A stretch of 64,000 bases of DNA, counting the filler, from an uncultured Methanosarcinales archaeon (GTDB lineage: Archaea > Nanobdellota > Nanobdellia > Woesearchaeales > CAYXTQ01): NCBI GenBank assembly GCA_964608065.1. It is 4 parts of 4 records of this genome, joined end to end, with 100 filler letters (N's around TTAATTAATTAA, not from the genome) between each part and the next. Parts side by side here need not be neighbours in the genome. Positions count along the whole stretch, not along the records: positions 59,385 to 64,000 come from CAZSMA010000096.1; 3 more parts are not named here. The stretch is one strand, 5' to 3'. Below the pieces are notes generated by a model that ran no database searches, was not told the DNA's origin, and saw only the letters and a program-made list of their open reading frames with translations. Numbering within the stretch: the stretch's first letter is position 1; each line of letters begins with the position of its first letter. This document shows positions 11,668 through 63,999 of this stretch, piece after piece. The translations under genes were made by a program, and so were the position numbers.

Positions 11668-11677
11668 TTTTTTTTTT

Positions 11678-12772
11678 TTATTTCTTATTATATAAACTAG
11701 CTTTTGGTTCTTTTTCGCTAATCAATTTATCTAAGAGTTCTTTAAGATCGAGGGAAACAACAGCAATTCTTTTGTCAGCAGCCCCATAGTAAATATAAAG
11801 TCTCTTACCAAAAACAACAGCTCCTGTTGGAAATACAACATTATCTACATTACCTTTTTTCTCCCAATGTTCTTCTGGAGAAAATAAAGGCTCTCTAAGG
11901 TGTCCAATAACTTTTGTAGGATTTTTTTTATCCAACAAAGCAGCTCCTGCTCTGTATATTTTTCCCCTGTCCATATCATCAACAGCATGATAAATCAATA
12001 ACCACCCTTTTGAAGTTTCAATAGGTGGGCACCCTCCTCCAATATTCCTGCTTTCATACCAGTATTTTGATTCTAAAACAACAAAATCACATAATCTTTT
12101 GAGATATTTTTCCCAATAATCCATCGTGAGGTCTGAAAATTTCTTAAAATAAATAACCTGTATATCTGGCAGAATCCTATGCACTAATGCAAATTTTCCA
12201 TTGATTTTTTTTGGAAAAAATAAAGCATCTTTATTCCATAACAAAACATCTTTCCCAGCTATGTCTTTGAAACGTGATTCAAAAAGAAAATACCTTTCTT
12301 TTAATTTAGACCTACAAGCACGAAATAGGTCCTCTGCTTTATCATAGGTTATTTCAGGAGAGATTATTCCTTTCTTTTGAAATGTTTTCAGATCTTTACT
12401 TGTTGCATAGGCTATACGCACATTTTTACCATCATAAGCGATATAAGTGAGATAATATAATCCATCAAGAAAAACTATTCTAGGATCTTCAAGGTTATGT
12501 TCATATTTTGATTCTGGAAATAACAATGGTTCCTTTGCCCTTTCCACAACTTTTAGAGGGCCGTCAAGTTTACAATAACCTATGGTTGAACGTTTGTCTT
12601 TGTTCCAAGCACGATAGAACATATGCACATATTTTCCTTCTCTAATACATGCTGGATTAAATACCCCTTTACTTTCAAATTCTAGTTTAGTAGGGTTTAG
12701 TATAATACCATGTTTTTTAATAAATACCATAACATAATATATTAATCTCACTACTTTATATATTTTTCTCAA
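11678..12772 (-). CDS. GH130-family glycosidase/phosphorylase (PH1107-like)
   Basis: GVFNPA, EDPRI, WNKDALFFP, IGGGCPPIET, LLIYH and NVVFPTGA motifs; probable start at MVFIKK (12730). Confidence 0.9.
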   Translation of the reverse strand: MRKIYKVVRLIYYVMVFIKKHGIILNPTKLEFESKGVFNPACIREGKYVHMFYRAWNKDKRSTIGYCKLDGPLKVVERAKEPLLFPESKYEHNLEDPRIVFLDGLYYLTYIAYDGKNVRIAYATSKDLKTFQKKGIISPEITYDKAEDLFRACRSKLKERYFLFESRFKDIAGKDVLLWNKDALFFPKKINGKFALVHRILPDIQVIYFKKFSDLTMDYWEKYLKRLCDFVVLESKYWYESRNIGGGCPPIETSKGWLLIYHAVDDMDRGKIYRAGAALLDKKNPTKVIGHLREPLFSPEEHWEKKGNVDNVVFPTGAVVFGKRLYIYYGAADKRIAVVSLDLKELLDKLISEKEPKASLYNKK

Positions 12773-16622: not shown

Positions 16623-18347
16623 TTAAGAAATCATTACAGATTTTACCCTTTCCTTAACATATTCATCCTTAACCAAGCCCTTAACTAACTCTTCTATCTT
16701 ATAATACTTCCTCTTAACATTAGCGCAAACTTTTCTTTTTTCAACAAAAGTCTTCTTATATTTCTTCTCAAACCTTTTAACATGGTCTTTAAGAAAAATA
16801 GGAGGACCTGAAACTTTCTTGACCTTACTTAAATCTTTATTATCCACAACAAACCAGAATTTAGCATTCCCTTCTCTTCCCCATTCCCAGCCATAATCCT
16901 TTAGTTTGAACTCATAAAAAATAATTTGATTTTTAATAAACCTAAAAGCCTTCATCAATCTTCCACCAATAACATCAATTTTGCCTTTCATAGGCATAGC
17001 TTCCAGATAAACTAATTTATTCTTACCGCTTTTCCTTTTCAAAAATTCCTTTGTAATTTCTTTCTCAACAAAAAACATTTTACTTGAATTCTTGACAAAT
17101 TTCTTACAATAATCTTTAAACCTTTCAAAATTCTCTTCACTAATAGCTGCAGCAGCATTCCTGTCATTCTGCACAGGATCAACAATAACCAAAGGACTGA
17201 CTACCTTGCTTTCATTCATCTCAAACAGAACATTCTTGTTTTTATAGTAATTGTTAATATCAACTATAACCTTATCATTCCATTTAGCAGCTGTTTTTAC
17301 CAAATTAACAAACCCTTTGTAATAAACAGTCAATATCTCGCAAATATATCCAGAAAATCCTTGTATATAACTCTCAGCACCATAAACTTTAGCAGCTTTG
17401 CAGAATTTCTTAGCCAACCTTATATCATCTAAATATTTCTTATGTTTTAACACCCATTTTGCATGCAACGGACTGACATCAGTTATATTAATAGCTTCTT
17501 CTGCTTTATTTATATTTAGTATAGGAACAATCTCAAACGTATATCCTTTTTCTTTAATCTGAAAATAATCTCTAGAGCCATGCAACCTTATTATCTTCTT
17601 AAACTTTTTTTTCAAATGCTTCTCTAANNNNNNNNNNNNNNNNNNNNNNNNNNNNNNNNNNNNNNNNNNNNNNNNNNNNNNNNNNNNNNNNNNNNNNNNN
17701 NNNNNNNNNNNNNNNNNNNNNNNNNNNTAGAGCCATGCAACCTTATTATCTTCTTAAACTTTTTTTTCAAATGCTTCTCTAACTAATGGCAAAAACCCTT
17801 TATAATAAACAGCCAATATCTCGCAAATATATCCAGAAAATCCTTGTATATAACTCTCAGCACCATAAACTTTAGCAGCTTTGCAGAATTTCTTAGCCAA
17901 CCTTATATCATCTAAATATTTCTTATGTTTTAACACCCATTTTGCATGCAACGGACTGACATCAGTTATATTAATAGCTTCTTCTGCTTTATTTATATTT
18001 AGTATAGGAACAATCTCAAACGTATATCCTTTTTCTTTAATCTGAAAATAATCTCTAGAGCCATGCAACCTTATTATCTTCTTAAACTTTTTTTTCAAAT
18101 GCTTCTCTAAAATATCACTTAATTTATCACTTTTACTCTTATATTTCTGATAATTAAACTTAACAAAAAAATCAACATCAAACTGCTTCAGCCAGGTTCC
18201 TTTTGCCCCACTCCCACCTAACTCAGCTTTTGCACCTTTCAACCCTTTGTTTATCCTATTAAGCATGGAATTAACTGTATTTTTAATCTCTTTTTCCTCC
18301 TCTTTGCTTGGAGTTATTTCGTTTAAGACTTCTTTCAGGAATTTCAT
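16623..18347 (-). CDS. cca: Archaeal class I CCA-adding enzyme, broken in this assembly by an N-gap and a duplicated segment
   Basis: N-part GGSGAKGTWL..DVDFF (start MKFLKEV at 18347); YGAESYIQGFSGY; C-part DPVQNDRNAAAA and GPP; about 300 bp repeated on both sides of the gap at 17628-17727. Confidence 0.88.
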
Positions 18348-18406
18348 AATTAAGAAATTAGTTCTATTTATTATAAAAATGTTTGGATTAAATAAAAATG
18401 TCAAAA

Positions 18407-39691: not shown

Positions 39692-40052
39692 TTTATCTCC
39701 CCAAGAACTCTTGGCGTATATACTATACCCCTTTTAACCTTTCANNNNNNNNNNACTCTTTTTCTCCATGACTTTTAAAAAATATTTAACAAAATAAAAT
39801 ATTTTTTTTTTTTTTTTTTTTCTTCTTCCTTCCAACACAACCTATTTAAACCCTTATAGTCTACTCAATTCTCCATATGATAACATACATTGACAAGCCT
39901 TACAATGAAGAACAGGTTAAACATATACTGAATCCATTAGTAAAGAAATGGTNNNNNNNNNNNNNNNNNNNNNNNNNNNNNNNNNNNNNNNNNNNNTTAA
40001 TTAATTAANNNNNNNNNNNNNNNNNNNNNNNNNNNNNNNNNNNNNNNNNNNN

Positions 40053-40485
40053 CGATGTTATTTGATGATAAAAATTTCACTAGCTTTCCTTTTTTTTTTT
40101 TTTTTTGTTTATTGATTTGGTTTTCATTGATTTCTGAGAATGTGTCTCCAACTGGATTGAAAGTGTAAACTTTCTTTTTTGTTTTCATTGCAACACCTAA
40201 TGGGTGGAATGTTCCATCTCCAATATAAAGGAAACATTCAACTTTTTTTTCAATCTTTAAAGCTGAGCTTATATCACAACCTAGAACTTGTCCTTTGTAT
40301 TTTTGCTTTGCTTTTTCTAAGAAAGCTTTTTTATTATTTTTTTCCAGGAAGGATTTTATTTTTGGTAAATGGTCTGAGAATTGTACAGAGCTGATTAATC
40401 CTATTTTATTCGGTAATTTGTTTAATGGAATCTTAGTTAGATTGAGGTTTCCTTTGTATTTTGCTTCTATGAATAGTGTTTTCAT
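40053..40485 (-). CDS. dph2: Diphthamide synthesis protein Dph2 (3' truncated by gap)
   Basis: LFIEAK, SSVQF, GQVLGC and YIGDGTFHP motifs. Confidence 0.9.
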
Positions 40486-40850
40486 TTCTTTTTATAACCG
40501 AATATTTTATTGTATTTATTATGGTCCATGAACTCTAAGATAAATGCTATAATCCTAACTTCATCCCCTATTAAAGTATATAATAATCTCCAGTAGCCAA
40601 CTAATTCAACTCTTAATATTTTATCAGTCCCATATTTTTGTATTGTGCTCTTAGAGATATATTTTCTTGGAATTAAATTCCCGTGAGATGGGTTTGATTT
40701 TATGTTTCTCAGGGCATTATTGATAGAGGACAATAATTGAGAGTATGTTGGCTTTTTCCTTGCAATTTCTCCTTTAGCAACAAATTCCTGTAATTCTTTA
40801 TATTCATGATATGCTTCTTGATCAAATTTAACAATAACTTCTTTATCCAT
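40482..40850 (-). CDS. RelE-like toxin
   Basis: NPSHG..I...RVELVGYWRLLYTL...DHNKYNKIFGY. Confidence 0.7.
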   Translation of the reverse strand: MDKEVIVKFDQEAYHEYKELQEFVAKGEIARKKPTYSQLLSSINNALRNIKSNPSHGNLIPRKYISKSTIQKYGTDKILRVELVGYWRLLYTLIGDEVRIIAFILEFMDHNKYNKIFGYKKK

Positions 40851-41132
40851 TTACATCACAGTAATTCCTTTCTTAAGCTTTAATTTAAGCTTTTCACTAA
40901 TATCTTCTCTATAAATCCAGATTATACCTTCCTTTAATAAAGCTATTTTTCCACTTTTTTCTAGATATAATAGTATTGTGTTTAGAGTTGGTCTCATTAT
41001 TTTTTTTTTTAATCTCCTATCTATCTCATTTTTAGATAAAGGTTCTTTAGTACTTCTAATAATGTTTTCCACATTCAATATTGTATCCAACCTTGGGTAA
41101 TGTAATACTTGTTTTAGCATTTTTAACACCAT
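40851..41132 (-). CDS. Winged-helix protein, putative antitoxin
   Basis: HYPRLDTILNVE...TLNTILLYLEKSGKI; abuts the toxin gene. Confidence 0.7.
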   Translation of the reverse strand: MVLKMLKQVLHYPRLDTILNVENIIRSTKEPLSKNEIDRRLKKKIMRPTLNTILLYLEKSGKIALLKEGIIWIYREDISEKLKLKLKKGITVM

Positions 41133-43792: not shown

Positions 43793-45685
43793 ATGACTGA
43801 GTTAAAGAGAGTATTAAGCTATAAGGTTATTCTGCTGATAGTAATCAATTCTATAATGGGTACTGGTATATTCTTTCTGCCTGCATTAGGGGCTAAGTAT
43901 GCTGGTGCTGCTTCTTTGGTCTCATGGGCTGTATTGTCAATAGTTGCTATATACATTGCAATGTGTTTTGGTGAACTATGTTCAATGTTTCCAACTGCCG
44001 GAGGAACATATGAATTTGCAAAGCATGCTTATGGAAGATTTCCTTCGTTTGTAATAGGGTGGATGACATTGATAGCTGGAAATATAACAATAGCTATGCT
44101 TATAGTTGGAGCAATCTCTTATTTGATTCCTTTTAGAAGCCCTGTTATTGTGATTATTATTTCTGCGATATTCATATTATTGTTTAATATAATCGCTTAC
44201 AGAGGTATGAAGGTCAGTGCTGTGATGCTTGTCACATTTGCATTTATAACATTACTTACATTAGGAGGATTAATAGTTCCTGGTTTAATCAAGTTTAATG
44301 CTTCAAATTTTCAGCCTTTTTTCTATTATCCTAAATTTCTCATATTGTTAGCTATATTCTTTATTGCAGAGACTTTTTTTGGGTGGGAATCTCCCACTTT
44401 CCTGGCAGGAGAGACTAAAAACGGAGAAAAGGTAATGCCTAAAGCTATTATTTACGGCACAATAATCATAGCGATAATATCTTTGATTTTTGTCATAGCT
44501 TCTATAAGCAGTGTTGGGTGGCAGACTTTAGGACAGTCAACAAGTCCTGTTACTGATATTGCAAAAGTACATTATGGCAATATAGGTGAGATGATATTCA
44601 GATTATTAGTATATTTGGCAATAATTGGCAGTGTGGCTGACTGGGTTGTAAGTTCACCAAGATTAGTGCTTTCAATGGCAAAAGACAGATTATTTCTTCC
44701 ACATTTAAGTGAAATTCATCCAAAGTATCATACACCTCACAAAGCTATAATTTTCCAGACAGTAGTAAGCATGATATTTGTATTTATTGGTGTTGGTTCT
44801 TATGTAACATTATTGCATCTACTTGTTCCAATATTATTAGTATTATATTCCCTTGTTTTGATGAGTGTCATCATACTAAGAAATAAAAAACCACATCTGA
44901 AGAGATATTATAAAGCTCCTTTTGGAGAAATAGGTCCTTTTATAGTTACTTTATTTTTTGTTGGTTTAATGATTATATGGTTTATTTTGACAAAGAATGC
45001 ATTAAACATAATAACATTAGGAGCATCATTTTTACTGATGGGTCTGCCTGTTTATTTTTTACTTGAGATGTACTATGACCCTAAAGCTGTAAGAAATACA
45101 AACAATCTATTAGCTAATCTAGTTTTATGGACTGAGAGTATATCATTACCAAAGAAAGTCAGAAAAGAAATCATAAGTTTGTTAGGGAGTATTAAAGGTA
45201 AAAGGGTTTTGGAATTTGGATGCAATGTAGGAACATTGACTATGTGTCTTGCTGAAGAGGTGGGTAAAAAAGGAAGGATTTATGCAACAGATATTTCTGA
45301 GAGTGATATAAAGATTGCAAAAAAAAGATTAAGCAAGAAAGGACATTATCATGTTACTGTATTGCATGATTTAGAGCACCATCACAGAGTTCATCCTAGT
45401 GTGCCAAAAATAGATGCTGTGGTTTCAGTTGGAACTTTAGGATATCTAAGAAATACTAAAAAGATTCTTACAGAGATAAATGAAAGGCTTAAAACTGGAG
45501 CTAAGATATGCTTTGTTGATTATGATAAATTCTTTGATATAATCCCAAATATTGACTGGTTGTCTGATGATACTAAAGTGAAAAAAATATTCAGGGATGC
45601 TGGATTTAATGTTGGTGTTGTAAGAAAGCAAGGGTTTGCATGGAAATATGTTTATGTCTATGGTGTTAAGTTTAAGAATGTTTGA
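43793..45685 (+). CDS. APC amino-acid permease fused to a class I SAM-dependent methyltransferase-like domain
   Basis: IMGTGIFF, ELCSMFPTAGG.Y, FFGWE, HPKYHTP, about 12 TM; C-terminal VLEFGCNVG, YATDIS and LKTGAKI. Confidence 0.88.
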   Translation: MTELKRVLSYKVILLIVINSIMGTGIFFLPALGAKYAGAASLVSWAVLSIVAIYIAMCFGELCSMFPTAGGTYEFAKHAYGRFPSFVIGWMTLIAGNITIAMLIVGAISYLIPFRSPVIVIIISAIFILLFNIIAYRGMKVSAVMLVTFAFITLLTLGGLIVPGLIKFNASNFQPFFYYPKFLILLAIFFIAETFFGWESPTFLAGETKNGEKVMPKAIIYGTIIIAIISLIFVIASISSVGWQTLGQSTSPVTDIAKVHYGNIGEMIFRLLVYLAIIGSVADWVVSSPRLVLSMAKDRLFLPHLSEIHPKYHTPHKAIIFQTVVSMIFVFIGVGSYVTLLHLLVPILLVLYSLVLMSVIILRNKKPHLKRYYKAPFGEIGPFIVTLFFVGLMIIWFILTKNALNIITLGASFLLMGLPVYFLLEMYYDPKAVRNTNNLLANLVLWTESISLPKKVRKEIISLLGSIKGKRVLEFGCNVGTLTMCLAEEVGKKGRIYATDISESDIKIAKKRLSKKGHYHVTVLHDLEHHHRVHPSVPKIDAVVSVGTLGYLRNTKKILTEINERLKTGAKICFVDYDKFFDIIPNIDWLSDDTKVKKIFRDAGFNVGVVRKQGFAWKYVYVYGVKFKNV

Positions 45686-52965: not shown

Positions 52966-54768
52966 TTAGTATTTATTTTTTAAAATCAATTTAGGATATA
53001 TTCCTAAGCTTTTCAATTCATCCAGTAAAAGTTTGAAAGCATAACTCAGTTCTATATTAGTTATAGTTGTATTGTCTCCACAAACAGGGCAGTAGCTTCT
53101 ATCCTTGTATTCATCCCTTATTGCTATAATACCGCAGTTCTCGCATAAAGGTACTACAGTTTTATCTGAATCAAATCTTTCTTTTAATAATAATGATGCT
53201 CCGTGAGCTACAAAAGTATCTTTTTCCATCTCTCCAAGTCTTAAGCCGCCTTCTTTTGCTCTACCTTCTGTTGGCTGTCTTGTAAGCAATTGTATTGGAC
53301 CACGAGCTCTGGAATGTATTTTGTTTGCTACCATATGCTTTAATCTTAAATAATACATATTACCAACGTAAATTCTTGCTTTAAGCTGCTGTCCTGTCAT
53401 ACCATTGTATAATGTTTCAGTTCCATTGTCTCTAAATCCTGCTTCAAGCAATTCTTCTCTTAATTTTTCTTCTGGTTCACTATCAAAAGTTGTTCCATCA
53501 ATATACCTTCCTGATAATGCTCCTACCTTGCCTGCTAATAACTCCAGTAAATGCGCTATAGTCATTCTGCTAGGAATACTATGGGGTGAGAATATAACAT
53601 CAGGTATAATGCCTGTTGCTGAGAAAGGCATGTCTGCTGCACGTACTATCAAACCAACAATACCTTTTTGTCCATGCCTGCTTGTGAATTTATCTCCAAT
53701 TTCAGGAATCCTTTCATCTCTGACTCTTACTTGTACTAGCTTATTGCCTTCATAATTCTCTGTGATTAGAACAAAATCAACAACACCTTTTTCACCATGA
53801 CTTATTGAAACAGAAGACTCTCTTCTTACAGTAGAAGCCAGGCTATATTCATCCAAGCTGCTTAAGAATCTTGGTGGAGAAGTTTTACCGATAATTACAT
53901 TGCCTTCATTAACCCTAGCACCAGGATAGATTATGCCGTCTTCTTCAAGATATTTATAGTCTTTTTCACTTTTATATCCTTTAACATCCTTGTCAGGAAT
54001 ACTGACCTCATCTACTAACCCACCAGAATATCTTAGTTCTTCTGCTATGCTTGGTCTATAATAACAAGAACGGCCCATCCCTCTATCAATAGATCCTTTG
54101 TTGAGGATTATTGCGTCTTCTATGTTATATCCTTCATAACTCATTACAGCTACAACTAAATTCTGACCAGCAGGATGTTTTTCATAATTTGAAATATCAT
54201 GCATTATTGATTTTACAATAGGTACTTGAGGTGTAAACTGCAGGTTAACATCCATATCCATCCTTATAGAAAAGTTGGTGGCATAGAAACCAACAGCTTG
54301 TTTTTGGTTTTTAGAACCTGCGTTTAACCTTGTTGATTGATTAAAATTAGAATATGGGACTAAAGAAGTGATTAAGCCCAACATTGATAATGGAGAAATT
54401 TCCAGATGTGTGTGTTCTGGTGTCAGGTCTTTCTCATAAAATGCAATTAAAGAGTTCTCTTCTTCAGCAGCATCTATATATTCAATAATTCCTTTTTCAA
54501 CCAGATCGTGCCATGCTATTTCATTTTTTTCTAACTGCATGATGTGCTTTTCTGTGAATAAAGGCTTTCCGTTTTTAACAACTATCAATGGTCTTCTTAC
54601 TCTGCCACGATTGCTTTCTACATATACTTCATTATTTTCTTCATCATAACGAATATTAAGATTAGGATCAACAACACCTTTTCTTCTTTCATCTACTACT
54701 GACTTAAAAAAAGTTTTACCATTATCAACATTTCCTATAAATTTTCCGTTTACAAATACTTCTGTCAT
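52966..54768 (-). CDS. rpoB1: RNA polymerase subunit B' (Rpo2C)
   Basis: GYNIED, GDKFTSRHGQKG and GGLRLGEME motifs. Confidence 0.98.
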   Translation of the reverse strand: MTEVFVNGKFIGNVDNGKTFFKSVVDERRKGVVDPNLNIRYDEENNEVYVESNRGRVRRPLIVVKNGKPLFTEKHIMQLEKNEIAWHDLVEKGIIEYIDAAEEENSLIAFYEKDLTPEHTHLEISPLSMLGLITSLVPYSNFNQSTRLNAGSKNQKQAVGFYATNFSIRMDMDVNLQFTPQVPIVKSIMHDISNYEKHPAGQNLVVAVMSYEGYNIEDAIILNKGSIDRGMGRSCYYRPSIAEELRYSGGLVDEVSIPDKDVKGYKSEKDYKYLEEDGIIYPGARVNEGNVIIGKTSPPRFLSSLDEYSLASTVRRESSVSISHGEKGVVDFVLITENYEGNKLVQVRVRDERIPEIGDKFTSRHGQKGIVGLIVRAADMPFSATGIIPDVIFSPHSIPSRMTIAHLLELLAGKVGALSGRYIDGTTFDSEPEEKLREELLEAGFRDNGTETLYNGMTGQQLKARIYVGNMYYLRLKHMVANKIHSRARGPIQLLTRQPTEGRAKEGGLRLGEMEKDTFVAHGASLLLKERFDSDKTVVPLCENCGIIAIRDEYKDRSYCPVCGDNTTITNIELSYAFKLLLDELKSLGIYPKLILKNKY

Positions 54769-54783
54769 TTTTTTTTTTTTTTT

Positions 54784-56271
54784 TTATTTTACAGTTTTTA
54801 ACCCAATATTTTTTAGTTGCTTTATTATTTCATCTTCATTAGAATCTTTACTAATACTTGCTAGTAATGCAAGATTCTTTCTTAAACCAATATTAGTACC
54901 TTCTGGAGTCTCAATCGGACATAATCTTCCTAAATGTGTGCAGTGTAGTTCACGAGCTTCAAAATTTTCCTGAGAAGCTGATAGTGGTGAAACAACACGC
55001 TGAAGATGAGAAAGAGTTTCGAGAAAATTTAATCTTTGAATTCTTTGAGAAATTCCTTTTCTGCCGCCAACCCAAGAACCTGTTGCCATGCTGCTATAGA
55101 TCCTTGATGTTAACAGCTTGTCTCTGATAATAACCTTGATTGATGGGAACTTGCCCCTCTTGACAATCCTTTGGAAATTGTATAGTAAATCTCCGATAAG
55201 AACTTTTAAGTTTACTCTGAATAAATCTGCTAATAAATCACCAGATGTTTTTAATCTTTTATTCATGTAATGATCTTTATCATCTAATCTTTTTTCTCCG
55301 TTAGCCACCATCAAATATTTTTTAACCATCTTGCATAGATTGTAAGATTTGAAGACACGATCTTCTTTTTTTATCCCTAAATGAGGCAGCAAATATTTAT
55401 CTAATATTTCACGCATCCTATCAATCCTTATTTCCTTTGACTGAGTGATGCCTATCTTTTTTGCAATCCAATCCAATGCTTCTTCTTCTGTATTTATATC
55501 AACAAACTCATAAAGATTAATGATGATCTCGTCATATTGTTTTGTTGAACTTACAAATTTCATGATGTCTTCATCTTTTAATAAACCTAAAGCTTTTATT
55601 ACAATCACAATAGGGATTCTTTTGACTCTTGTGAAAGTTAAGTAAAACACTCCATCTTTCATTCTTTCCAAAGTATGTGGAATTTTGAATGAACCTCGTT
55701 CAGAGAATAATTTTCCAGTATAATCTGTAACACCTACTGTTTTTTTTTCAACAAGCATTATATTAGAAGCAAGATCTTCTATGTTGATTAGTACTCTCTC
55801 AGTTCCATTGATTATAAAATATCCCCCCGGGTCATCAGGGTCTTCGCCTTTTTCTATTAATTCTTCTTTGCTTGATTTACTTAAGTGGCAGTATTTGCTT
55901 TTTAACATAATAGGCAAGTTTCCTACTTCAGTTGTTATGGTTTCCCTTTGCACGCCATTAATATGAGAACTAACTTCAATATAGCATGGGGCTGCATAAG
56001 TCATTTTTCTCAGTCTTGCTTCAATTGGGAATATTTTCCTTTTGCTTCCGTCTGCTTCAGTAATCTCCGGCTTTGTTACCCACACCTTATCTAATTTGAT
56101 TTTGAATTCGTCTATGTTATGTGGTATGATTGTTGGCTCTATTTCTTTGTTTTCTTCTATGATATCATGGATCGCTTTTTCTATAAAATTGTTGAAAGAT
56201 TCTATGTCAGTCTCTACAAAACTCTGTTCTTCAAAATATTTCTTGATCAAAGTAGTAGAATATTTACTCAT
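54784..56271 (-). CDS. rpoB2: RNA polymerase subunit B'' (Rpo2N)
   Basis: DPGGYFIINGTE, DDKDHYMNKR and CPIETPEG motifs. Confidence 0.98.
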   Translation of the reverse strand: MSKYSTTLIKKYFEEQSFVETDIESFNNFIEKAIHDIIEENKEIEPTIIPHNIDEFKIKLDKVWVTKPEITEADGSKRKIFPIEARLRKMTYAAPCYIEVSSHINGVQRETITTEVGNLPIMLKSKYCHLSKSSKEELIEKGEDPDDPGGYFIINGTERVLINIEDLASNIMLVEKKTVGVTDYTGKLFSERGSFKIPHTLERMKDGVFYLTFTRVKRIPIVIVIKALGLLKDEDIMKFVSSTKQYDEIIINLYEFVDINTEEEALDWIAKKIGITQSKEIRIDRMREILDKYLLPHLGIKKEDRVFKSYNLCKMVKKYLMVANGEKRLDDKDHYMNKRLKTSGDLLADLFRVNLKVLIGDLLYNFQRIVKRGKFPSIKVIIRDKLLTSRIYSSMATGSWVGGRKGISQRIQRLNFLETLSHLQRVVSPLSASQENFEARELHCTHLGRLCPIETPEGTNIGLRKNLALLASISKDSNEDEIIKQLKNIGLKTVK

Positions 56272-56506
56272 TTACAACCTCTCTATAAAAAACAGCTTCT
56301 CCTGCAGTAGGGCTTTTTCTGATTATTTTGATTATATCTCCCTGCTTAGCATCTAATCCCTTTATTGCAGAATCTTTTTTTAAGATTGTAGGCAATTGTT
56401 TAGAAGATATATTATATAGTTCAAGTAGATTAGTTTTCTCCTTTTCACTTAATTTAACGTGTTTAGGTACTAATATGTGCTTGTTTATGTCAATGCTTTT
56501 TTTCAT
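56264..56506 (-). CDS. rpoH: RNA polymerase subunit H (Rpo5)
   Basis: HILVPKH, QLP.I, RKSPTAG...YR. Confidence 0.97.
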   Translation of the reverse strand: MKKSIDINKHILVPKHVKLSEKEKTNLLELYNISSKQLPTILKKDSAIKGLDAKQGDIIKIIRKSPTAGEAVFYREVVNE

Positions 56507-57366: not shown

Positions 57367-57861
57367 ATGAGAAAAAAAGGTTCTTTAAACTTATCAATGA
57401 ATGCAATTGTTATTCTGATTTTAGCTATAACCTTACTTGGACTTGGTTTGAGTTTTATGAGAGGATTGTTCAAACAGATGGAAGGTAAAGTAAATGAGGC
57501 TGTAAGCGCACAAGAGCTTTCAAATCCTCCTACAATGGATAATGTTCTAACAACTGCTCCAGGTGATATAACTTTAAGAAAAAGCGAAGTTGGAGAAATC
57601 ATTATTGCTTATATGAGTACTTATGCTGGAGAAGATTCGTGTAGTTTAGATATTGATAATACAGGGGGTGCAGTTGTAGCAGACTTAAAATGGTCTAGCT
57701 CATCAACAAATATGCAACAAGACCAGATTAATAAATGGACTGTTGGTGTTGATAATGTTGATGGTGCTACAACAGGTACTGAATTGCAGACTGCAACTAT
57801 GACATGTACTGTAAGTAGTACAAGCTATACTAAAGATATTATTATAACATTTACAGATTAG
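57367..57861 (+). CDS. Pilin-like protein with class III signal peptide (paralog 1)
   Basis: MRKKG/SLNLSMNAIVILILAI...; GAGGT SD. Confidence 0.8.
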   Translation: MRKKGSLNLSMNAIVILILAITLLGLGLSFMRGLFKQMEGKVNEAVSAQELSNPPTMDNVLTTAPGDITLRKSEVGEIIIAYMSTYAGEDSCSLDIDNTGGAVVADLKWSSSSTNMQQDQINKWTVGVDNVDGATTGTELQTATMTCTVSSTSYTKDIIITFTD

Positions 57862-57870
57862 AGGTGAAAA

Positions 57871-58434
57871 ATGAGAAAAAAAAAAAAAGGATCTTTAAGC
57901 TTATCAATGAATGCAATTGTTATTCTGATATTAGCTATAACCTTGCTTGGACTTGGTTTGAGTTTTATGAGAGGATTGTTCAAACAGATGGAAGTTAAAA
58001 CACAAGCTGCTGTAAGCGCACAAGAGCTTTCAAATCCTCCTACATCTGATAACCCAATAACTACAGCACCTGGCACTATTACATTAAGAGAAAGCGAAAG
58101 AGGCAAGATTTTAATGGCATTTATGAATATGGGACCTGGAACTAAATATTGCCAATTGAATATGGAAGATGGTGATGGTTTGGATATATCTCCTAGTGGT
58201 ACAAGTGGTATCAAAAATATTGTAATATTTAATGCAGGTATATCACAAATGGCACAAGACCAGATAAACACATGGACTCTTTCAGTTGATGGTAGTATAC
58301 CAGGTACTGGTACACAGATTGTTACTGCAAAAGTATGTTGTGATGACACAGGAGCTGATCCAGTAAGTTGTACATCTGCAACAAATGGCGGTGCTGAGTT
58401 CAAAAAAGACATGATGATAACAGTTACTACATAA
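57871..58434 (+). CDS. Pilin-like protein with class III signal peptide (paralog 2)
   Basis: MRKKKKG/SLSLSMNAIVILILAI; N-terminus nearly identical to paralog 1. Confidence 0.8.
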   Translation: MRKKKKGSLSLSMNAIVILILAITLLGLGLSFMRGLFKQMEVKTQAAVSAQELSNPPTSDNPITTAPGTITLRESERGKILMAFMNMGPGTKYCQLNMEDGDGLDISPSGTSGIKNIVIFNAGISQMAQDQINTWTLSVDGSIPGTGTQIVTAKVCCDDTGADPVSCTSATNGGAEFKKDMMITVTT

Positions 58435-58450
58435 TTAAGAGGTGAGTATC

Positions 58451-58663
58451 ATGAAAAAAAAACTTACTCGTGATGAAGAATTTGGAATTATGAAGCTAGT
58501 ACTGGACAAGTTTTTATGGCTTGGATTTGGTATTATGGCATTTGGCCTTTATAAGATGGTCAATGCAGACATTACTAGTGGAATTGCATGGATGATAACA
58601 GGAGCAATAGTTTTGGTATTGTTCATGGTTGTTATTGTCAAGGAATATGAGGTAATAAAATGA
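58451..58663 (+). CDS. Small 2-TM membrane protein
   Basis: MKKKLTRDEEFGIMKLVLDKFLWLG...VKEYE; GAGGTGA SD. Confidence 0.8.
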   Translation: MKKKLTRDEEFGIMKLVLDKFLWLGFGIMAFGLYKMVNADITSGIAWMITGAIVLVLFMVVIVKEYEVIK

Positions 58664-59202
58664 GGGGGGAAAAAGGATCATTAAATCTTTCCTTAAACTT
58701 CCTTGTTATTCTGATTTTAGCTATAGCTATATTAGGCTTGGCTTTGAGTTTCACAAGAGGTGTTTTTTCAGATATGGAAGCTAAGGTTAAAGTGGCAGTA
58801 AGTTCTACAGAATTATCAAATCCTCCTACAAAAGATAATCCAATTACTACGACTCCATTTAAAGTTGAGGTTAAACAAGGAGAAAACACAGAAATTATTG
58901 TTGCATTTATGAATATAGAACCTGAAACTTTAGTATATACTCTAGATGTTACAAACACTGAGGGAGATAGTTGTCAGACAGCAGGAAACTGTGTTGTGCC
59001 AATGCAATTTAGCACAGCTGATTACTCAATGAGAGGTGGACAGATAAATACATGGGCTATGATATTCCATCCTGTAAGAGGTGACAGCCCTACACAATTC
59101 GGAAATTATCTCTATACAGCCAATGTTATATGTGGAGCTGCACAGGGTTGCAGCACAGAATTAAGACGTACTATTGACTTTGAAGTCATAGTTACTACCT
59201 AG
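58660..59202 (+). CDS. Pilin-like protein with class III signal peptide (paralog 3)
   Basis: MRGEKG/SLNLSLNFLVILILAI; shares ELSNPPT.DNPITT.P and QINTW with the other paralogs. Confidence 0.8.
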   Translation: MRGEKGSLNLSLNFLVILILAIAILGLALSFTRGVFSDMEAKVKVAVSSTELSNPPTKDNPITTTPFKVEVKQGENTEIIVAFMNIEPETLVYTLDVTNTEGDSCQTAGNCVVPMQFSTADYSMRGGQINTWAMIFHPVRGDSPTQFGNYLYTANVICGAAQGCSTELRRTIDFEVIVTT

Positions 59203-60047: not shown

Positions 60048-60800
60048 GTGGTAATAATGGTTAAAATAGGTATAATTGGTGGCTCAGGATTAGAAGATCC
60101 TAAAATATTAAAGGATGCTAAGGAAAAGGAAGTTAAAACACCTTATGGTAATGCTAAAGTCACTGTTGGTAATATTGAGAATATTGATATTGTCTTAATC
60201 TCAAGGCATGGAAAACAACATACAATTACTCCAACACATGTTAACAACAGAGCTAATATTGATGCTTTAAAAAAGGAAAAATGCACTCATATAATTGCAA
60301 CAACTGCTTGCGGAAGTTTAAGAAAAAATATTGGAAGAGGAGATTTGGTGATTCTGGACCAGTTTATTGATTTCACAAGATTAAGGAATTTATCATTCTA
60401 TGATAAGTTTGAGCCTCATAAACCAATCCATGTTTCTATGGCAGAGCCATTTTCCAAGGAATTAAGAGAAATTTTAATTGATACTGCTAAAGAATTGAAA
60501 CTAAAACATCATGGAAAAGGAACTGTAATTACAATTGAAGGTCCAAGGTTTTCAACAAAAGCTGAAAGTAAAATGTTTTCAAGCTGGGGTGCAGATGTAA
60601 TCAATATGAGCATTGCTCCTGAATGTATTTTAGCTAATGAAGCAGAAATACCTTATGCTGTTGTAGCTATGAGCACTGATTATGATTGTTTATTTGATGA
60701 TGTTGAACCTGTAACATGGGAAGAGATATTGAAAGTTTTCAAACAGAATGTAGATAAAGTGACAAGTTTATTGATTAAATCTATTCCTAAAATTCAATAA
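60048..60800 (+). CDS. mtnP: 5'-methylthioadenosine / 5'-deoxyadenosine phosphorylase
   Basis: IGIIGGSG, TPYG, RHG..H, DQFIDFT, IEGPRFSTKAES and STDYD motifs. Confidence 0.93.
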   Translation: MVIMVKIGIIGGSGLEDPKILKDAKEKEVKTPYGNAKVTVGNIENIDIVLISRHGKQHTITPTHVNNRANIDALKKEKCTHIIATTACGSLRKNIGRGDLVILDQFIDFTRLRNLSFYDKFEPHKPIHVSMAEPFSKELREILIDTAKELKLKHHGKGTVITIEGPRFSTKAESKMFSSWGADVINMSIAPECILANEAEIPYAVVAMSTDYDCLFDDVEPVTWEEILKVFKQNVDKVTSLLIKSIPKIQ

Positions 60801-61800
60801 TTACTTTAATAGAATTTTTAGCTTCAGAAACAAGCTTAAAACCTTTTTTTATTTCTTCTAATTTCAATCTGTGTGTTATCATATCTTTGACATTAATTTT
60901 TCTTTTTTTGATTAGTTCAATAGCTTCCTTTAAATCTTTTTCAACAGCTGCATAAGTTGTAGTTAATGTTATTCCTTTCATCCATAGTTCATTGAATGGG
61001 ATTTCAACTTTAGTGTTGGGGTCTGTTGGAGCAAACCATAAAATTGTTCCGCTTTTTTCAACTGAGTTTAATGCTTGTTTTATTGCAGGCAAAGCACCTG
61101 TACATACAATTACTTTGTCTGCTAACTGGTTGATTAATCCTTTAACTTTATTTGGTACATCTTCCTTGGCATTTATTACAAAATCAGCTCCTAATTTTTT
61201 TGCTGATTTTAACCTGAATTCATCAATGTCTGTTGCAATAACTTTTGCACCTTTTAACTTAGCTAATTGGATATGTAATAATCCAGAAATACCGCTTCCA
61301 ATGACTAGGACTGTATCCCCTTTCTTAATATCAGCAATTCTTTGGCCTCTGACAACACATCCTAATGGCTCTATAAAAGTTCCATCTTCAAAATCAATTT
61401 CTTTTGGCAACTTAAAGGTTCCATTTTCTATATTTATTTTTGGAATTCTAATAAATTCAGAAAAACCACCAGGATGAAAATTAGTTTTTTTTAATGTGTC
61501 ACAAGCAATGTGTTTGTCATTTAAGCAGTACTTGCATTTATTGCATGGAACATGGTGTGTGGAAAAAACAATGTCGCCTTTCTTATAACTTTTTACATTT
61601 TTTCCTGTTTCAACAACTTCTCCTGTCATTTCATGACCAAGAACTAAAGGTGCTTTCTTAGCTCTGTACCATTCCATCACATCACTGCCGCAAATACCGC
61701 ATGCTTTAGTTTTTACAAGAATTTCATTATCATTTATTTTAGGTTTTGGAAGTTCTTCTATTCTAATGTCGTTGTTGTTGTAGTAAACTGCTGCTTTCAT
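60787..61800 (-). CDS. Zn-dependent MDR dehydrogenase (sorbitol/threonine DH-like)
   Basis: CGICGSD, LGHE, CNKCKYC...C, EPLGC, GSGISG, and DID (NAD-preferring). Confidence 0.92.
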   Translation of the reverse strand: MKAAVYYNNNDIRIEELPKPKINDNEILVKTKACGICGSDVMEWYRAKKAPLVLGHEMTGEVVETGKNVKSYKKGDIVFSTHHVPCNKCKYCLNDKHIACDTLKKTNFHPGGFSEFIRIPKINIENGTFKLPKEIDFEDGTFIEPLGCVVRGQRIADIKKGDTVLVIGSGISGLLHIQLAKLKGAKVIATDIDEFRLKSAKKLGADFVINAKEDVPNKVKGLINQLADKVIVCTGALPAIKQALNSVEKSGTILWFAPTDPNTKVEIPFNELWMKGITLTTTYAAVEKDLKEAIELIKKRKINVKDMITHRLKLEEIKKGFKLVSEAKNSIKVIIEF

Positions 61801-62063
61801 CTTTTATAGATATACTTTAACCAAATTTTTTTTAAAAAACGAAGAGACAAAATAGATAATATAAATCCAATTGTGGGCACTAAAGCACTAAGCCATGGAT
61901 ACGGAACTTTTATGATCTTTAAGAAGATAACTATAATCAAATAAGTCATAATAGAAATAAGCAATTTTCTTGTAAAACTTGTTTCCCAAGCCTTATCCTT
62001 CTCAACCTTTGTGTTCCTCTCAATTATAGATTTAATTTGTTTATCCATTCTAACCAACATCAA
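61797..62063 (-). CDS. Small 2-TM membrane protein
   Basis: ERN.KVE.DKAWETS.TR, ALVPTIGFILS; ATGA overlap with the dehydrogenase gene. Confidence 0.75.
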   Translation of the reverse strand: MMLVRMDKQIKSIIERNTKVEKDKAWETSFTRKLLISIMTYLIIVIFLKIIKVPYPWLSALVPTIGFILSILSLRFLKKIWLKYIYKR

Positions 62064-62094
62064 AATTCAATTTTAAAATAAAAAAAAAAAAAAA

Positions 62095-62889
62095 TTACTT
62101 TTTCTTTTTGCTTAGCTCTTCATATAACTGATAAGCTTCTTTAACAGTTGCTTTTTCATGGACAACTGCTCTTACAGATTTTATCATTGCTATTGGGTTT
62201 TCTGACTGGAAAATGTTTCTTCCCATGTCAACTCCAACTGCTCCTGCTGTAATAGCATCATGAGCTAATTTTAAAGCATCTTTTTCAGGAATCTTTTTAC
62301 CGCCTGCTATGACTAATGGTACTGGTGTGTTCTCTACCATTTTGTCAAAACCTTCTTCGCAATAATAAGTTTTTACCCATGAAGCTCCTAGTTCAGCTGC
62401 TATTCTGCAGGCTAGTCCTAAGTAACGAGCATCTCTTACCATTTCTTTTCCAACTGCAGTTACTGCTAAGACTGGAATTCCGTATTGTTCACCCTGGTCA
62501 ATTAATTTTGTCAGATTTTTTAGGCCTTGTTTTTCAAATTTAGATCCAACATATATTGAGTATGCAACTCCTGATGCATTTAACCTTACAGCGTCTTCCA
62601 TAGATACTGTGATTTCTTCATTAGAAAGATCTTCTGATAATATGCTGTTGCATCCAGAGACTCTTAATACAATTGGATTGTCAACACCAGGATCAATAGA
62701 TGTTCTTAACGCGCCCCTCGTTAACATCAAACAATCAGCATATGGTGCTAATGGCATTACAGCTTTGTTTAGATTCTTTAAACCAGTTGTTGGTCCTAGA
62801 AAATAACCATGATCTACAGCTAACATAACAGTTTTACCAGTATTTGGTTTTATAATTCTTTTTATTCTATTTGCTTTTCCCCAATCCAT
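62095..62889 (-). CDS. lsrF: LsrF-type 3-hydroxy-5-phosphonooxypentane-2,4-dione thiolase (class I aldolase fold)
   Basis: DWG, TGKTVMLA.DHGYF.GPTTGL, SMEDAVRLN, VGKEMVRD.RY, KTYY, IAGGKK and GVDMGRNIFQS match E. coli LsrF as recalled. Confidence 0.88.
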   Translation of the reverse strand: MDWGKANRIKRIIKPNTGKTVMLAVDHGYFLGPTTGLKNLNKAVMPLAPYADCLMLTRGALRTSIDPGVDNPIVLRVSGCNSILSEDLSNEEITVSMEDAVRLNASGVAYSIYVGSKFEKQGLKNLTKLIDQGEQYGIPVLAVTAVGKEMVRDARYLGLACRIAAELGASWVKTYYCEEGFDKMVENTPVPLVIAGGKKIPEKDALKLAHDAITAGAVGVDMGRNIFQSENPIAMIKSVRAVVHEKATVKEAYQLYEELSKKKK

Positions 62890-62955
62890 TTTTGATTACC
62901 CCCTAATCTTTTATTTAATTGGAAAAGTTATTGAATGTTTATAAAGGTTTCTAAC

Positions 62956-63999
62956 TTATTTAAACAAACTTATAATACCTTTCTTATTAGCTTTAATAAC
63001 CCCTTTTTCAGTTATAATCCCAGAAATATACTTAGCAGGTGTTATATCAAATGCAGGGTTAAGTGCTTTGCTTTGTTTTGGAGAGATTCTTACTTTTTTT
63101 ATTTCATTGTTATCTGTGCCTTGCACTAGGTGTACTTCATCTTCATCTCTTTCTTCTATGGGGATTTTATCTCCATTAATGCATTCTAAGTCAATAGTTG
63201 AAGTTGGAGCTGCAACATAGAATGGAATATTATTTTCTTTAGCTAAAACAGCTTTTTCATAAGTTCCTATTTTATTTGCAACATCACCATTAACAGCTAT
63301 TCTATCTGCTCCTACAATGCAGATATTAATTTCCTTTTTTCTCATATAATAGCCAGCAGCATTGTCAGCTATTATAGCATGAGGAATTTTTTCTTCTGCC
63401 ATTTCAAATGCTGTTAACCTAGCACCCTGTAATCTAGGCCTTGTTTCATCAACAAAAACAAATATTTTCTTGCCAGAATAATGTGCAGTTCTTATTGGAG
63501 CTAAAGCTGTTCCATAATCAACAGTAGCTAATGCTCCTGCATTGCAATGTGTTAGAATTTTGTAATTGTTTTTAATTAATTTATTTCCAAATTCACCAAT
63601 TTTTTTTGTATTTTCAACACTTTTATTAGCATATTGTTGTGCAACTTTATATGGGTCTTTATTATTTTTTATTGCTTTAAACACAAAATCCAACCCATCT
63701 TTTAGATCATAAGCAGTTGGCCTTGTTTCTAATAATATTTTATAGGATTCTTTGATATAATCAAGAAATTTATTTTTATTTCCATTAAATAGCATAGCAG
63801 CTTGAGCTAGGCCAAATGCTGCTGTTGCTCCTATTGCAGGAGCACCTCTTACAATCATTGTTTTGATTGCATAAGCTGTCTCTCCAGTAGTTTTTAAGTC
63901 AACTATCTCAAACTTATGAGGCAGCAAAAGCTGATTAATCATACTGATTATTTTTCCTTTCATCCATACTGTCCTATAATCTTTATTGTTAATTTTCAA
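62956..63999 (-). CDS. mtnA: Methylthioribose-1-phosphate isomerase
   Basis: MIVRGAPAIG, TRPTA, LTHCNAGALATVDYGTAL, DETRPRLQGARLT, GADRI..NGDVANKIGTY and NPAFDITP motifs. Confidence 0.96.
   Translation of the reverse strand: MKINNKDYRTVWMKGKIISMINQLLLPHKFEIVDLKTTGETAYAIKTMIVRGAPAIGATAAFGLAQAAMLFNGNKNKFLDYIKESYKILLETRPTAYDLKDGLDFVFKAIKNNKDPYKVAQQYANKSVENTKKIGEFGNKLIKNNYKILTHCNAGALATVDYGTALAPIRTAHYSGKKIFVFVDETRPRLQGARLTAFEMAEEKIPHAIIADNAAGYYMRKKEINICIVGADRIAVNGDVANKIGTYEKAVLAKENNIPFYVAAPTSTIDLECINGDKIPIEERDEDEVHLVQGTDNNEIKKVRISPKQSKALNPAFDITPAKYISGIITEKGVIKANKKGIISLFK

Follow-up and report, generated by a model that had tools for sequence, protein, structure and literature searches.

A gene cluster with mtnA, an lsrF-like gene, a zinc dehydrogenase gene and mtnP in a Woesearchaeales archaeon: a candidate oxidative route for 5'-deoxyadenosine salvage

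We analysed a stretch of 64,000 nucleotides (nt), here called the window, from an uncultured Methanosarcinales archaeon placed by GTDB in the Woesearchaeales (assembly GCA_964608065.1). The subject is a group of genes near its end, on the part that comes from CAZSMA010000096.1, and its possible role in the salvage of 5'-deoxyadenosine and 5'-methylthioadenosine (MTA). At 60048-63999 the calls of open reading frames (ORFs) give five densely packed genes, with mtnP on the plus strand and the other four on the minus strand.

60048-60800, plus strand: mtnP, 250 amino acids (aa); Pfam PNP_UDP_1 at 151.7 bits; TIGR01694 (MTAP) at 281 bits, cut-off 274.85
60787-61800, minus strand: zinc-dependent dehydrogenase of the medium-chain dehydrogenase/reductase type (MDR), 337 aa; Pfam ADH_N and ADH_zinc_N
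61797-62063, minus strand: ORF of 88 aa with two predicted membrane helices, within the operon-like run
62095-62889, minus strand: LsrF-like gene, 264 aa, class I (Schiff-base) enzyme; NF006081 at 414.6 bits, cut-off 297
62956-63999, minus strand: mtnA, 347 aa; Pfam IF-2B at 260 bits; TIGR00512 at 394 bits, cut-off 279

The minus-strand run reads mtnA, LsrF-like gene, 88-aa ORF and MDR gene, with gaps of 66 nt and 31 nt followed by a 4-nt overlap. The MDR gene and mtnP are convergent and overlap by 14 nt (mtnP stop TAA at 60798-60800; MDR stop CTA, that is TAG, at 60787-60789). Because the start of mtnA coincides with the window edge, its true start may lie a few codons further upstream. This layout, with the co-oriented genes converging on an overlapping mtnP, had been described in the initial annotation, and all five ORFs lie where it placed them. 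Its family assignments agree with the Pfam matches, the NCBIfam cut-offs and the matches in PDB.

As for the two entry genes, the mtnA product stays below the cut-off of the ribose-1,5-bisphosphate isomerase model TIGR00511 (e2b2), with 214 bits for a cut-off of 314. The mtnP product clears its own model narrowly; a relative in another locus (L056, from the neighbourhood sample below) reaches 323.3 bits. Orthologues of mtnP about 60% identical occupy the equivalent position in L056 and L062, two Woesearchaeota loci with which the window cluster is syntenic.

The LsrF-like protein has E. coli LsrF as its leading match in PDB (3gkf; E=1.9e-97, 328.6 bits), and the two proteins share 56% identity. 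MJ0400, a 2-amino-3,7-dideoxy-D-threo-hept-6-ulosonate (ADH) synthase, stands at 5.7e-37 and 130.6 bits, and the fructose-bisphosphate (FBP) aldolase of Thermoproteus tenax at ~1e-21 and ~78 bits. The RefSeq product name of LsrF is 3-hydroxy-5-phosphonooxypentane-2,4-dione (P-HPD) thiolase, and Marques 2014 is said to be the primary report of this thiolase activity. In the active-site passages of PMC2728841, Lys203 of the E. coli enzyme forms the Schiff base, Asp57 is the general base and Asp251 lies beside the lysine, with a phosphate site made of His58, Gly226, Gly227, Gly253 and Arg254. The matching residues of the window protein are D26, H27, K173, G196, G197, D221, G223 and R224 (E. coli D57, H58, K203, G226, G227, D251, G253 and R254). 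Seven of these, D57, H58, K203, G226, G227, D251 and G253 in E. coli numbering, are invariant in 82 of 82 aligned LsrF-like sequences, and so is M252. The eighth, R254, is kept in 72 of 72 sequences outside the clade of E. coli LsrF and in 8 of 9 inside it, the exception being one Lys.

These data bear on a reading in which the protein is a class I FBP aldolase, or the archaeal ADH synthase of aromatic amino-acid synthesis, and the MDR is unrelated. All of these enzymes share the DhnA/DeoC fold family, and archaeal DhnA-type proteins are often annotated in this way, for instance as "FbaB-like aldolase" in the relevant text of PMC11442133. However, the protein remains under the cut-offs for ADH synthase (TIGR01949, 185.8 for 299.45) and archaeal class I FBP aldolase (NF040816, 130 for 430), while its score with the LsrF model lies well over the threshold (414.6 for 297). 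Asp251, invariant here, is Ala in close aldolase homologues of LsrF, according to the same passages of PMC2728841. We give this reading next to no weight. The comparison with DhnA and ADH synthase that had been proposed as a check thus comes out for LsrF, both with the family model and with the PDB matches, where LsrF is far ahead.

The placement within the LsrF family was examined with a quick maximum-likelihood IQ-TREE analysis using a single long outgroup. One clade of 10 rows, with a Shimodaira-Hasegawa-like approximate likelihood-ratio (SH-aLRT) support of 99, holds E. coli LsrF together with the sequence of L072, a locus linked to lsrK. The window protein falls in a second group of 71 rows (SH-aLRT 81). 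Five alignment positions alone separate the E. coli clade from the window group, among them Gln141 to Ser and Val207 to Cys, the latter four residues past the catalytic lysine. Judged by its residues, the protein is a very close relative of the LsrF of the autoinducer-2 (AI-2) pathway, with an equal catalytic apparatus and a position outside the AI-2 clade. It had been called an LsrF orthologue. The P-HPD thiolase family and the 56% identity bear out the family part of that claim, but "orthologue" is too strong because the protein sits in the sister clade of E. coli LsrF.

Some longer relatives outside the window were also noted. The proteins P0393-P0405 are LsrF-like proteins of the MDR-linked type with C-terminal extensions of 200-290 aa. 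Three sequences were inspected (P0393, P0397 and P0403); they carry the motif KTYYC and their extensions are low-complexity repeat tails. Among 25 longer LsrF proteins, 13 are LsrF with such tails. The same set was considered as a source of gene fusions indicating a functional link, with LsrF joined to an MDR in P0411, P0412, P0414 and P0417 and to a radical-SAM (S-adenosylmethionine) enzyme in P0410. All five were set aside as merged neighbours and not true fusions, because the C-terminal part of the LsrF barrel is absent in every one of them.

For the gene neighbourhoods we used 80 loci of ~20 kb, the best 80 of 594 confirmed LsrF relatives. They cover many phyla; 54 of the source genomes are bacterial, 25 are archaeal and one has no assigned domain. 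An MDR at least 45% identical to that of the window is present in 54 of the 80 loci by tblastn, always on the strand of LsrF (46 downstream and 8 upstream), and in 44 of these 54 the gap between the two genes is 500 nt or less. After clustering of 918 neighbouring ORFs, the second most frequent neighbour of LsrF occurs in 9 loci only. LsrK and LsrR are found in a single locus of the 80 (L072), and tblastn with the E. coli queries gave LsrG, LsrB, LsrC and LsrD in none. The neighbourhood search suggested with the initial annotation therefore comes out positive for the pair: in 54 of 80 loci LsrF and the MDR are neighbours in the same orientation, with neither lsrK nor lsrG.

The distribution over the tree differs between the two groups. 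In the E. coli clade 6 of the 10 rows have no MDR and 2 are of the lsr type; in the other group 52 of the 71 rows have a close MDR and 8 a distant one. Pairwise identities of LsrF and MDR correlate over 53 pairs (r = 0.64; none of 500 label shuffles reaches this value), as expected of a unit that is inherited together. The conserved, mobile entity is the two-gene LsrF-MDR module. Its carriers, mostly uncultured, belong to Nitrospirota, Omnitrophota, Binatota, Thermoplasmatota and DPANN, with a divergent MDR in ammonia-oxidising archaea. In a plasmid collection, tblastn with the MDR gave no orthologue, the single match being 38% identical.

The divergent MDR accounts for eight further loci, all from Nitrososphaerota (L009, L010, L017, L025, L032, L035, L037 and L055). 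It is 34-38% identical to the window MDR; its gene immediately precedes that of LsrF on the same strand, and the surroundings are conserved and of the housekeeping kind. These proteins keep the HHVPC and PGGFSE motifs and not W-Y-R. They form a clade of their own in a tree with E. coli Tdh and GatD as sole outgroups, which are too few to decide orthology.

No MDR is present in 18 of the 80 loci, 5 of which have less than 1.5 kb of flank on one side. Three of the MDR-less loci have other partners after LsrF. In L039 (10874-12973) and L064 (4540-6657) the next gene encodes a bifunctional class II aldolase/short-chain dehydrogenase (NF006194, 834.8 bits), and in L051 (10795-12353) LsrF is followed by a ribulose-phosphate 3-epimerase and a short-chain dehydrogenase/reductase. 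These partners may be other variants of the module. A different case is L040 of Nitrospiraceae (10889-11867), where the MDR adjoining LsrF matches as two overlapping pieces, which suggests a frameshift or an assembly error.

The 88-aa ORF of the window has no match in Pfam or NCBIfam. It belongs to a real conserved family of ~90 aa, read as two-helix membrane proteins, which counts 670 representatives with E<=1e-3, of which 255 reach E<=1e-10. We considered it as a pathway component and rejected it, as no relative occurs at any of the 80 LsrF loci and its longer relatives bear unrelated domains. It stands outside the conserved LsrF-MDR module.

With the gene contexts at hand, the AI-2 explanation can be weighed. 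Here the LsrF-like gene would encode an AI-2 processing enzyme, with which the archaeon would break down AI-2 that is imported or phosphorylated. Source names such as "putative autoinducer-2 (AI-2) aldolase" and "P-HPD thiolase" speak for it, and a 2024 paper counts lsrF as a quorum-sensing gene in nearly all marine ammonia-oxidising archaea (PMC11442133). Yet LsrK, LsrG and LsrACDB are missing from the window and from 79 of the 80 loci. In the tree, the window protein is also separate from the clade of E. coli LsrF and the sole lsrK-linked locus, and the contexts are housekeeping ones. We regard this explanation as very improbable. The window itself had been described as free of lsrK, lsrG, lsrACDB and class II aldolase, and both searches were blank: E. 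coli LsrK, R, A, C, D, B and G, used as tblastn queries, matched nothing within the window, and a Pfam scan of 60 window ORFs (all but those shorter than 90 aa outside the cluster and those at 52966-56506) showed neither Aldolase_II nor an FGGY kinase nor an ABM domain.

In terms of the dehydrogenase, no NCBIfam equivalog cut-off is reached, and the top model is tdh (TIGR00692, 191.7 bits for a cut-off of 458.35). The MDR is ~30% identical to E. coli Tdh. Its nearest structures in PDB are the NADP-ketose reductase 1e3j, sorbitol dehydrogenases, alcohol dehydrogenases, threonine dehydrogenases and a butanediol dehydrogenase, and its close homologues are named "L-iditol 2-dehydrogenase" or "zinc-dependent dehydrogenase" in the databases. 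Our alignment has 53 sequences, the window MDR plus 52 from the 54 loci; the matched stretches of L018 and L040 are short, and these two were left out for that reason. Invariant throughout are C37, H56, E57 and E144 as zinc ligands, C86, C89, C92 and C100 as structural-zinc cysteines, the glycine motif G168-x-G170-x-x-G173, D191, W44-Y45-R46, H82-H83 and Y283.

The roles of the zinc ligands, the glycine motif and the acidic residue are those we assume from the MDR family. By our own mapping onto horse liver alcohol dehydrogenase, D191, after the second Rossmann strand, is presumably the acidic residue that selects NAD, and H82-H83 would take the pocket positions of Phe93-Thr94. Together these residues point to NAD+ as cofactor and to a polar, possibly anionic, secondary alcohol as substrate. 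The closest relatives of the MDR with a characterised activity act on secondary alcohols in polyols, threonine and butanediol. An enzyme of this sorbitol/threonine/butanediol-dehydrogenase type would suit the oxidation of a CH3-CHOH- group.

The link to MtnA is narrower. Only 7 of the 80 loci have MtnA no more than 7 kb away from LsrF (L012, L013, L020, L028, L056, L062 and L070), all of them archaeal (7 of 25). Counting the window, the linkage takes five arrangements:

Window, L056 and L062 (Woesearchaeota): mtnA, lsrF, MDR and a convergent mtnP; in L056 and L062 an adenine phosphoribosyltransferase gene (apt, 260.8 bits) is divergent, upstream of mtnA
L012 (Aenigmatarchaeota): mtnA, lsrF and MDR
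L013 and L020 (Altiarchaeota-like): a divergent mtnA, then lsrF, MDR and S-adenosylhomocysteine (SAH) hydrolase
L028: lsrF, MDR, a weak class II aldolase-family gene and mtnA
L070 (Thermoplasmata): mtnA and lsrF, with no MDR

The MtnA of L020, like that of the window, is clearly of the MtnA type and not of the ribose-1,5-bisphosphate isomerase type. Contexts of a related kind were seen at three other loci. In L038 (Coriobacteriia, bacterial) the region upstream of the lsrF-MDR pair has a purine nucleoside phosphorylase (343.6 bits) and a SAH hydrolase; in L004 the MDR is followed by QueE, a radical-SAM enzyme; and in L036 a homocysteine S-methyltransferase lies two genes upstream. These contexts of MtnA and of SAM salvage are suggestive of a salvage function, and they form a minority of the loci. 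As for whether the linkage is conserved elsewhere, on which the first reading had been made to depend, LsrF and MDR stay together in 54 of 80 loci, but MtnA joins them in 7 of 80 and in archaea only.

The chemistry offers a direct connection between the four enzymes. Between the product of MtnA, 5-deoxyribulose-1-phosphate, and P-HPD the one difference is the oxidation state of C4, and the cluster has a single oxidoreductase, the MDR. Oxidation of the C4 hydroxyl would give exactly P-HPD, as first proposed, and this structure is the stated substrate of LsrF. Table 2 of PMC7168661 gives the LsrF reaction as transfer of the acetyl group of P-HPD to coenzyme A (CoA), yielding dihydroxyacetone phosphate (DHAP) and acetyl-CoA. 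The order MtnP, MtnA, MDR and LsrF-like protein is favoured because of the DHAP-like head group, the single oxidation gap at C4, the stated LsrF reaction and the presence of the MDR as the only oxidoreductase.

In the proposed route, MtnP would first phosphorolyse the nucleoside to adenine and 5-deoxy- (or 5-methylthio-) ribose-1-phosphate; here the family is supported by the models, and the substrate range is that expected of it. MtnA, likewise supported as a family, would isomerise 5-deoxyribose-1-phosphate to the ketose 5-deoxyribulose-1-phosphate. The zinc-dependent MDR would then use NAD+ to oxidise the secondary alcohol at C4, beside the terminal methyl group, to P-HPD. Finally, Lys173 of the LsrF-like protein would form a Schiff base with the carbonyl adjoining CH2-O-P, and CoA would take the acetyl group, leaving DHAP and acetyl-CoA; this step is suggested by the 56% identity and the invariant active site. 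If MTA is the starting compound, the MDR substrate would be 5-methylthioribulose-1-phosphate (MTRu-1-P) and the acyl product methylthioacetyl-CoA. Most genomes with the LsrF-MDR pair would have their genes for the MtnP and MtnA steps at other places. For the MDR and LsrF-like steps we infer both the catalysis and the identity of the substrate. On balance, we give about an even chance that the cluster encodes an oxidative, CoA-dependent variant of 5'-deoxyadenosine and/or MTA salvage. This oxidative salvage, as it was initially put forward, gains from the conserved LsrF-MDR pair, the exact chemistry and the archaeal loci in which MtnA, MtnP, Apt and SAH hydrolase accompany that pair; the restricted linkage to MtnA goes the other way.

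The same genes could be read without an oxidation before cleavage. The LsrF-like protein would then be a class I aldolase acting on 5-deoxyribulose-1-phosphate or MTRu-1-P, with release of DHAP and acetaldehyde or 2-(methylthio)acetaldehyde, and the MDR would act as an aldehyde reductase, forming ethanol or 2-(methylthio)ethanol. This amounts to the DHAP shunt with a class I aldolase in place of the class II aldolase. The last enzyme of the known shunt is indeed an aldolase and leaves an aldehyde, which Rhodospirillum reduces with an alcohol dehydrogenase (PMC6302742). LsrF also has the full class I aldolase set of Lys, Asp general base and phosphate site, as described for the E. coli active site (PMC2728841), and the MtnA products bear the DHAP-like head group that such an aldolase requires. 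However, E. coli LsrF is annotated as a CoA-dependent thiolase and described as one in the table of PMC7168661, and the two LsrF clades differ at 5 positions only. The MDR itself belongs with the polyol/threonine enzymes: where a third Cys ligand would stand it has Glu144, and its pocket carries His-His, features in which it departs from typical acetaldehyde reductases. Nor would one expect a generic aldehyde reductase to remain next to the aldolase in 54 of 80 loci. The aldolase reading fits the gene context of the oxidative one and is a poorer fit to the enzyme types; we consider it improbable.

A third possibility keeps the oxidation and the thiolysis and changes the substrate. The LsrF-MDR pair would act on another phosphorylated ketose or deoxy-sugar, and MtnA and MtnP would serve general nucleoside scavenging or be incidental. 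Candidates are ribulose-1-phosphate from nucleoside ribose (giving glycolyl-CoA), bacterial 1-deoxyxylulose-5-phosphate (DXP, giving P-HPD) and a damage product. By our own reckoning of the chemistry, DXP oxidised at C4 would likewise give P-HPD. A different ketose phosphate has to be kept in view because 73 of the 80 loci give no hint of the substrate: MtnA is linked in 7 only and the contexts are otherwise uninformative. The phosphorylase of L038 is of the inosine/guanosine type and not MtnP, and L031 has a PfkB kinase and an inositol-1-phosphate synthase close by.

Several points stand against such a substrate. The module is present in archaea, and to our knowledge these lack the DXP pathway. 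The MtnA proteins of the window and of L020 are clearly of the MtnA type. The pair has no kinase, transporter or regulator as a neighbour conserved across two or more lineages, so that an endogenous, universal substrate fits better than a nutrient. We hold a different substrate to be unlikely, though with a chance that should be kept in mind.

Returning to the oxidative salvage of 5'-deoxyadenosine or MTA, a number of observations weigh against it. The window LsrF-like ORF begins at the residue aligned to position 32 of the E. coli protein and so has no 31-residue N-terminal extension, the element that forms the domain swap of the E. coli LsrF decamer. ORF lengths are 292-314 aa in the E. coli clade, ~257-280 aa in four listed Nitrososphaerota ORFs linked to an MDR, and 264 aa in the window. 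With this absence and the sister-clade position, an identical substrate specificity to E. coli LsrF is not guaranteed. Furthermore, the phosphate-binding residues of the MDR are guessed from sequence positions, and the activities of all four proteins are predictions from sequence.

The contexts add to these points. MtnA is near LsrF in none of the 54 bacterial loci and is missing nearby in 18 of the 25 archaeal ones. L070 pairs MtnA with LsrF in the absence of any MDR. In L028, the sole such case among the MtnA-linked loci, a class II aldolase-family gene lies between the MDR and mtnA, which would make the oxidative route redundant there or suggest another role. The recurrent neighbours of LsrF are mostly housekeeping genes (prs for phosphoribosyl pyrophosphate synthetase, L25, pth, S6, S18 and L9), which give no information on the substrate. 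No SAM or SAH riboswitch appeared in 23 of the 38 listed bacterial LsrF-MDR loci, where Rfam at the gathering threshold showed tRNAs only. For most carriers of the pair, the salvage substrate is an extrapolation.

Some known systems resemble the cluster in part. The DHAP shunt, or 5-deoxyribose disposal, consists of MtnP or MtnK, MtnA and the class II aldolase Ald2, or of DrdK-DrdI-DrdA. According to PMC6079011 and PMC6302742, it shares with the window the MtnP and MtnA entry, the substrates 5'-deoxyadenosine and MTA, and the product DHAP. It differs in having a class II aldolase beside mtnA, of which there is none in the 60 window ORFs scanned. In the window the C-C bond would be cleaved after oxidation by NAD+ and with CoA, so that the two-carbon product would be acetyl-CoA, with NADH, and not free acetaldehyde.

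The Lsr system of E. coli (kinase LsrK, isomerase LsrG and thiolase LsrF) has its last enzyme family in common with the window. The final reaction and its intermediate, with P-HPD converted to DHAP and acetyl-CoA, are probably shared too. The E. coli system makes P-HPD by isomerisation of phospho-AI-2, whereas the window would make it with a dehydrogenase acting on a 5-deoxy-ketose phosphate. Unlike the E. coli system, the window shows no LsrK, LsrG or transporter.

In the Tdh-Kbl system a zinc-dependent MDR oxidises CH3-CHOH- to a beta-dicarbonyl compound, and the product of the neighbouring gene cleaves it with CoA to give acetyl-CoA. The proposal for the window would run parallel to this, and tdh and kbl are adjacent in E. 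coli. Kbl is PLP (pyridoxal phosphate)-dependent. The cleaving enzyme of the window differs in being a Schiff-base TIM barrel with a phosphate site, and the window MDR is far under the Tdh cut-off. We see here a likeness of logic and claim no membership.

Lastly, haloarchaea have a non-carboxylating pentose bisphosphate pathway that takes a nucleoside-derived ketose-1-phosphate to DHAP and a C2 unit, by way of a ribose-1,5-bisphosphate isomerase, a phosphatase and a class II aldolase (ribulose-1-phosphate aldolase). The NCBIfam model for this aldolase is NF053831. The window differs from this route in that its isomerase is of the MtnA type and that no such aldolase is among the scanned ORFs.

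In terms of prior knowledge, our literature search found no paper joining LsrF or P-HPD to 5-deoxyribulose, MtnA or 5'-deoxyadenosine salvage; subscription journals and supplements were outside it. For what follows 5-deoxyribulose-1-phosphate, a 2018 review puts forward an aldolase step and no other (PMC6302742). The proposals for 5'-deoxyadenosine disposal in PMC6302742 and PMC6079011 are aldolase routes only. It is plausible that the oxidative route, built from known enzyme families, is one not yet described.

A broader view is tentative, and we think it somewhat doubtful. The LsrF-MDR pair would be a widespread housekeeping means to dispose of the universal by-products of radical-SAM enzymes and polyamine synthesis as DHAP, acyl-CoA and NADH, possibly older than the AI-2 pathway. 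The enterobacterial AI-2 route would have borrowed its thiolase, and quorum-sensing calls from archaeal and environmental "lsrF" would be misassigned. 5'-Deoxyadenosine is a product of every radical-SAM enzyme and inhibits these enzymes. If the oxidative route holds, the two-carbon unit would be saved as acetyl-CoA, NADH would be gained, and free acetaldehyde or methylthioacetaldehyde would be avoided. The highly conserved dehydrogenases now named "L-iditol 2-dehydrogenase" or "zinc-dependent dehydrogenase" would receive a function. DPANN archaea with small genomes would obtain triose phosphate and acetyl-CoA from nucleoside scavenging. The use of lsrF as an archaeal quorum-sensing marker, as in the part of PMC11442133 cited above, would be corrected.

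As for the rest of the window, its genes mark it as archaeal: RNA polymerase is split into A' and A'', and ribosomal proteins S7 and S12, NusA and a protein of the L7Ae family are encoded, at a G+C content of ~30%. Rfam at the gathering threshold gave nothing over the 64 kb (1-64000), tRNAs included.

A few other features were noted. On the plus strand at 57367-59202 there are three tandem paralogous ORFs of 164, 187 and 180 aa with a near-identical N-terminal hydrophobic segment, read as pilin-like, and with no Pfam match; a 73-aa membrane ORF, also without a Pfam match, is interspersed. A CCA-adding enzyme at 16623-18404 (minus strand) is seemingly divided between two ORFs that are separated by 138 nt; the nucleotidyltransferase domain and the start of tRNA_NucTransf2 are in the first, and tRNA_NucTransf2 with the C-terminal domain is in the second.

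Proteins of the Dph2 family, for diphthamide synthesis, are MTA-producing enzymes. At 39997-41132 on the minus strand one of them is present as a piece of 162 aa that covers model positions 64-204 of 302, with two small ORFs without assignment immediately upstream on the same strand. Finally, the ORF at 43793-45685 (plus strand) encodes an amino-acid permease with a fused C-terminal SAM-dependent methyltransferase domain.

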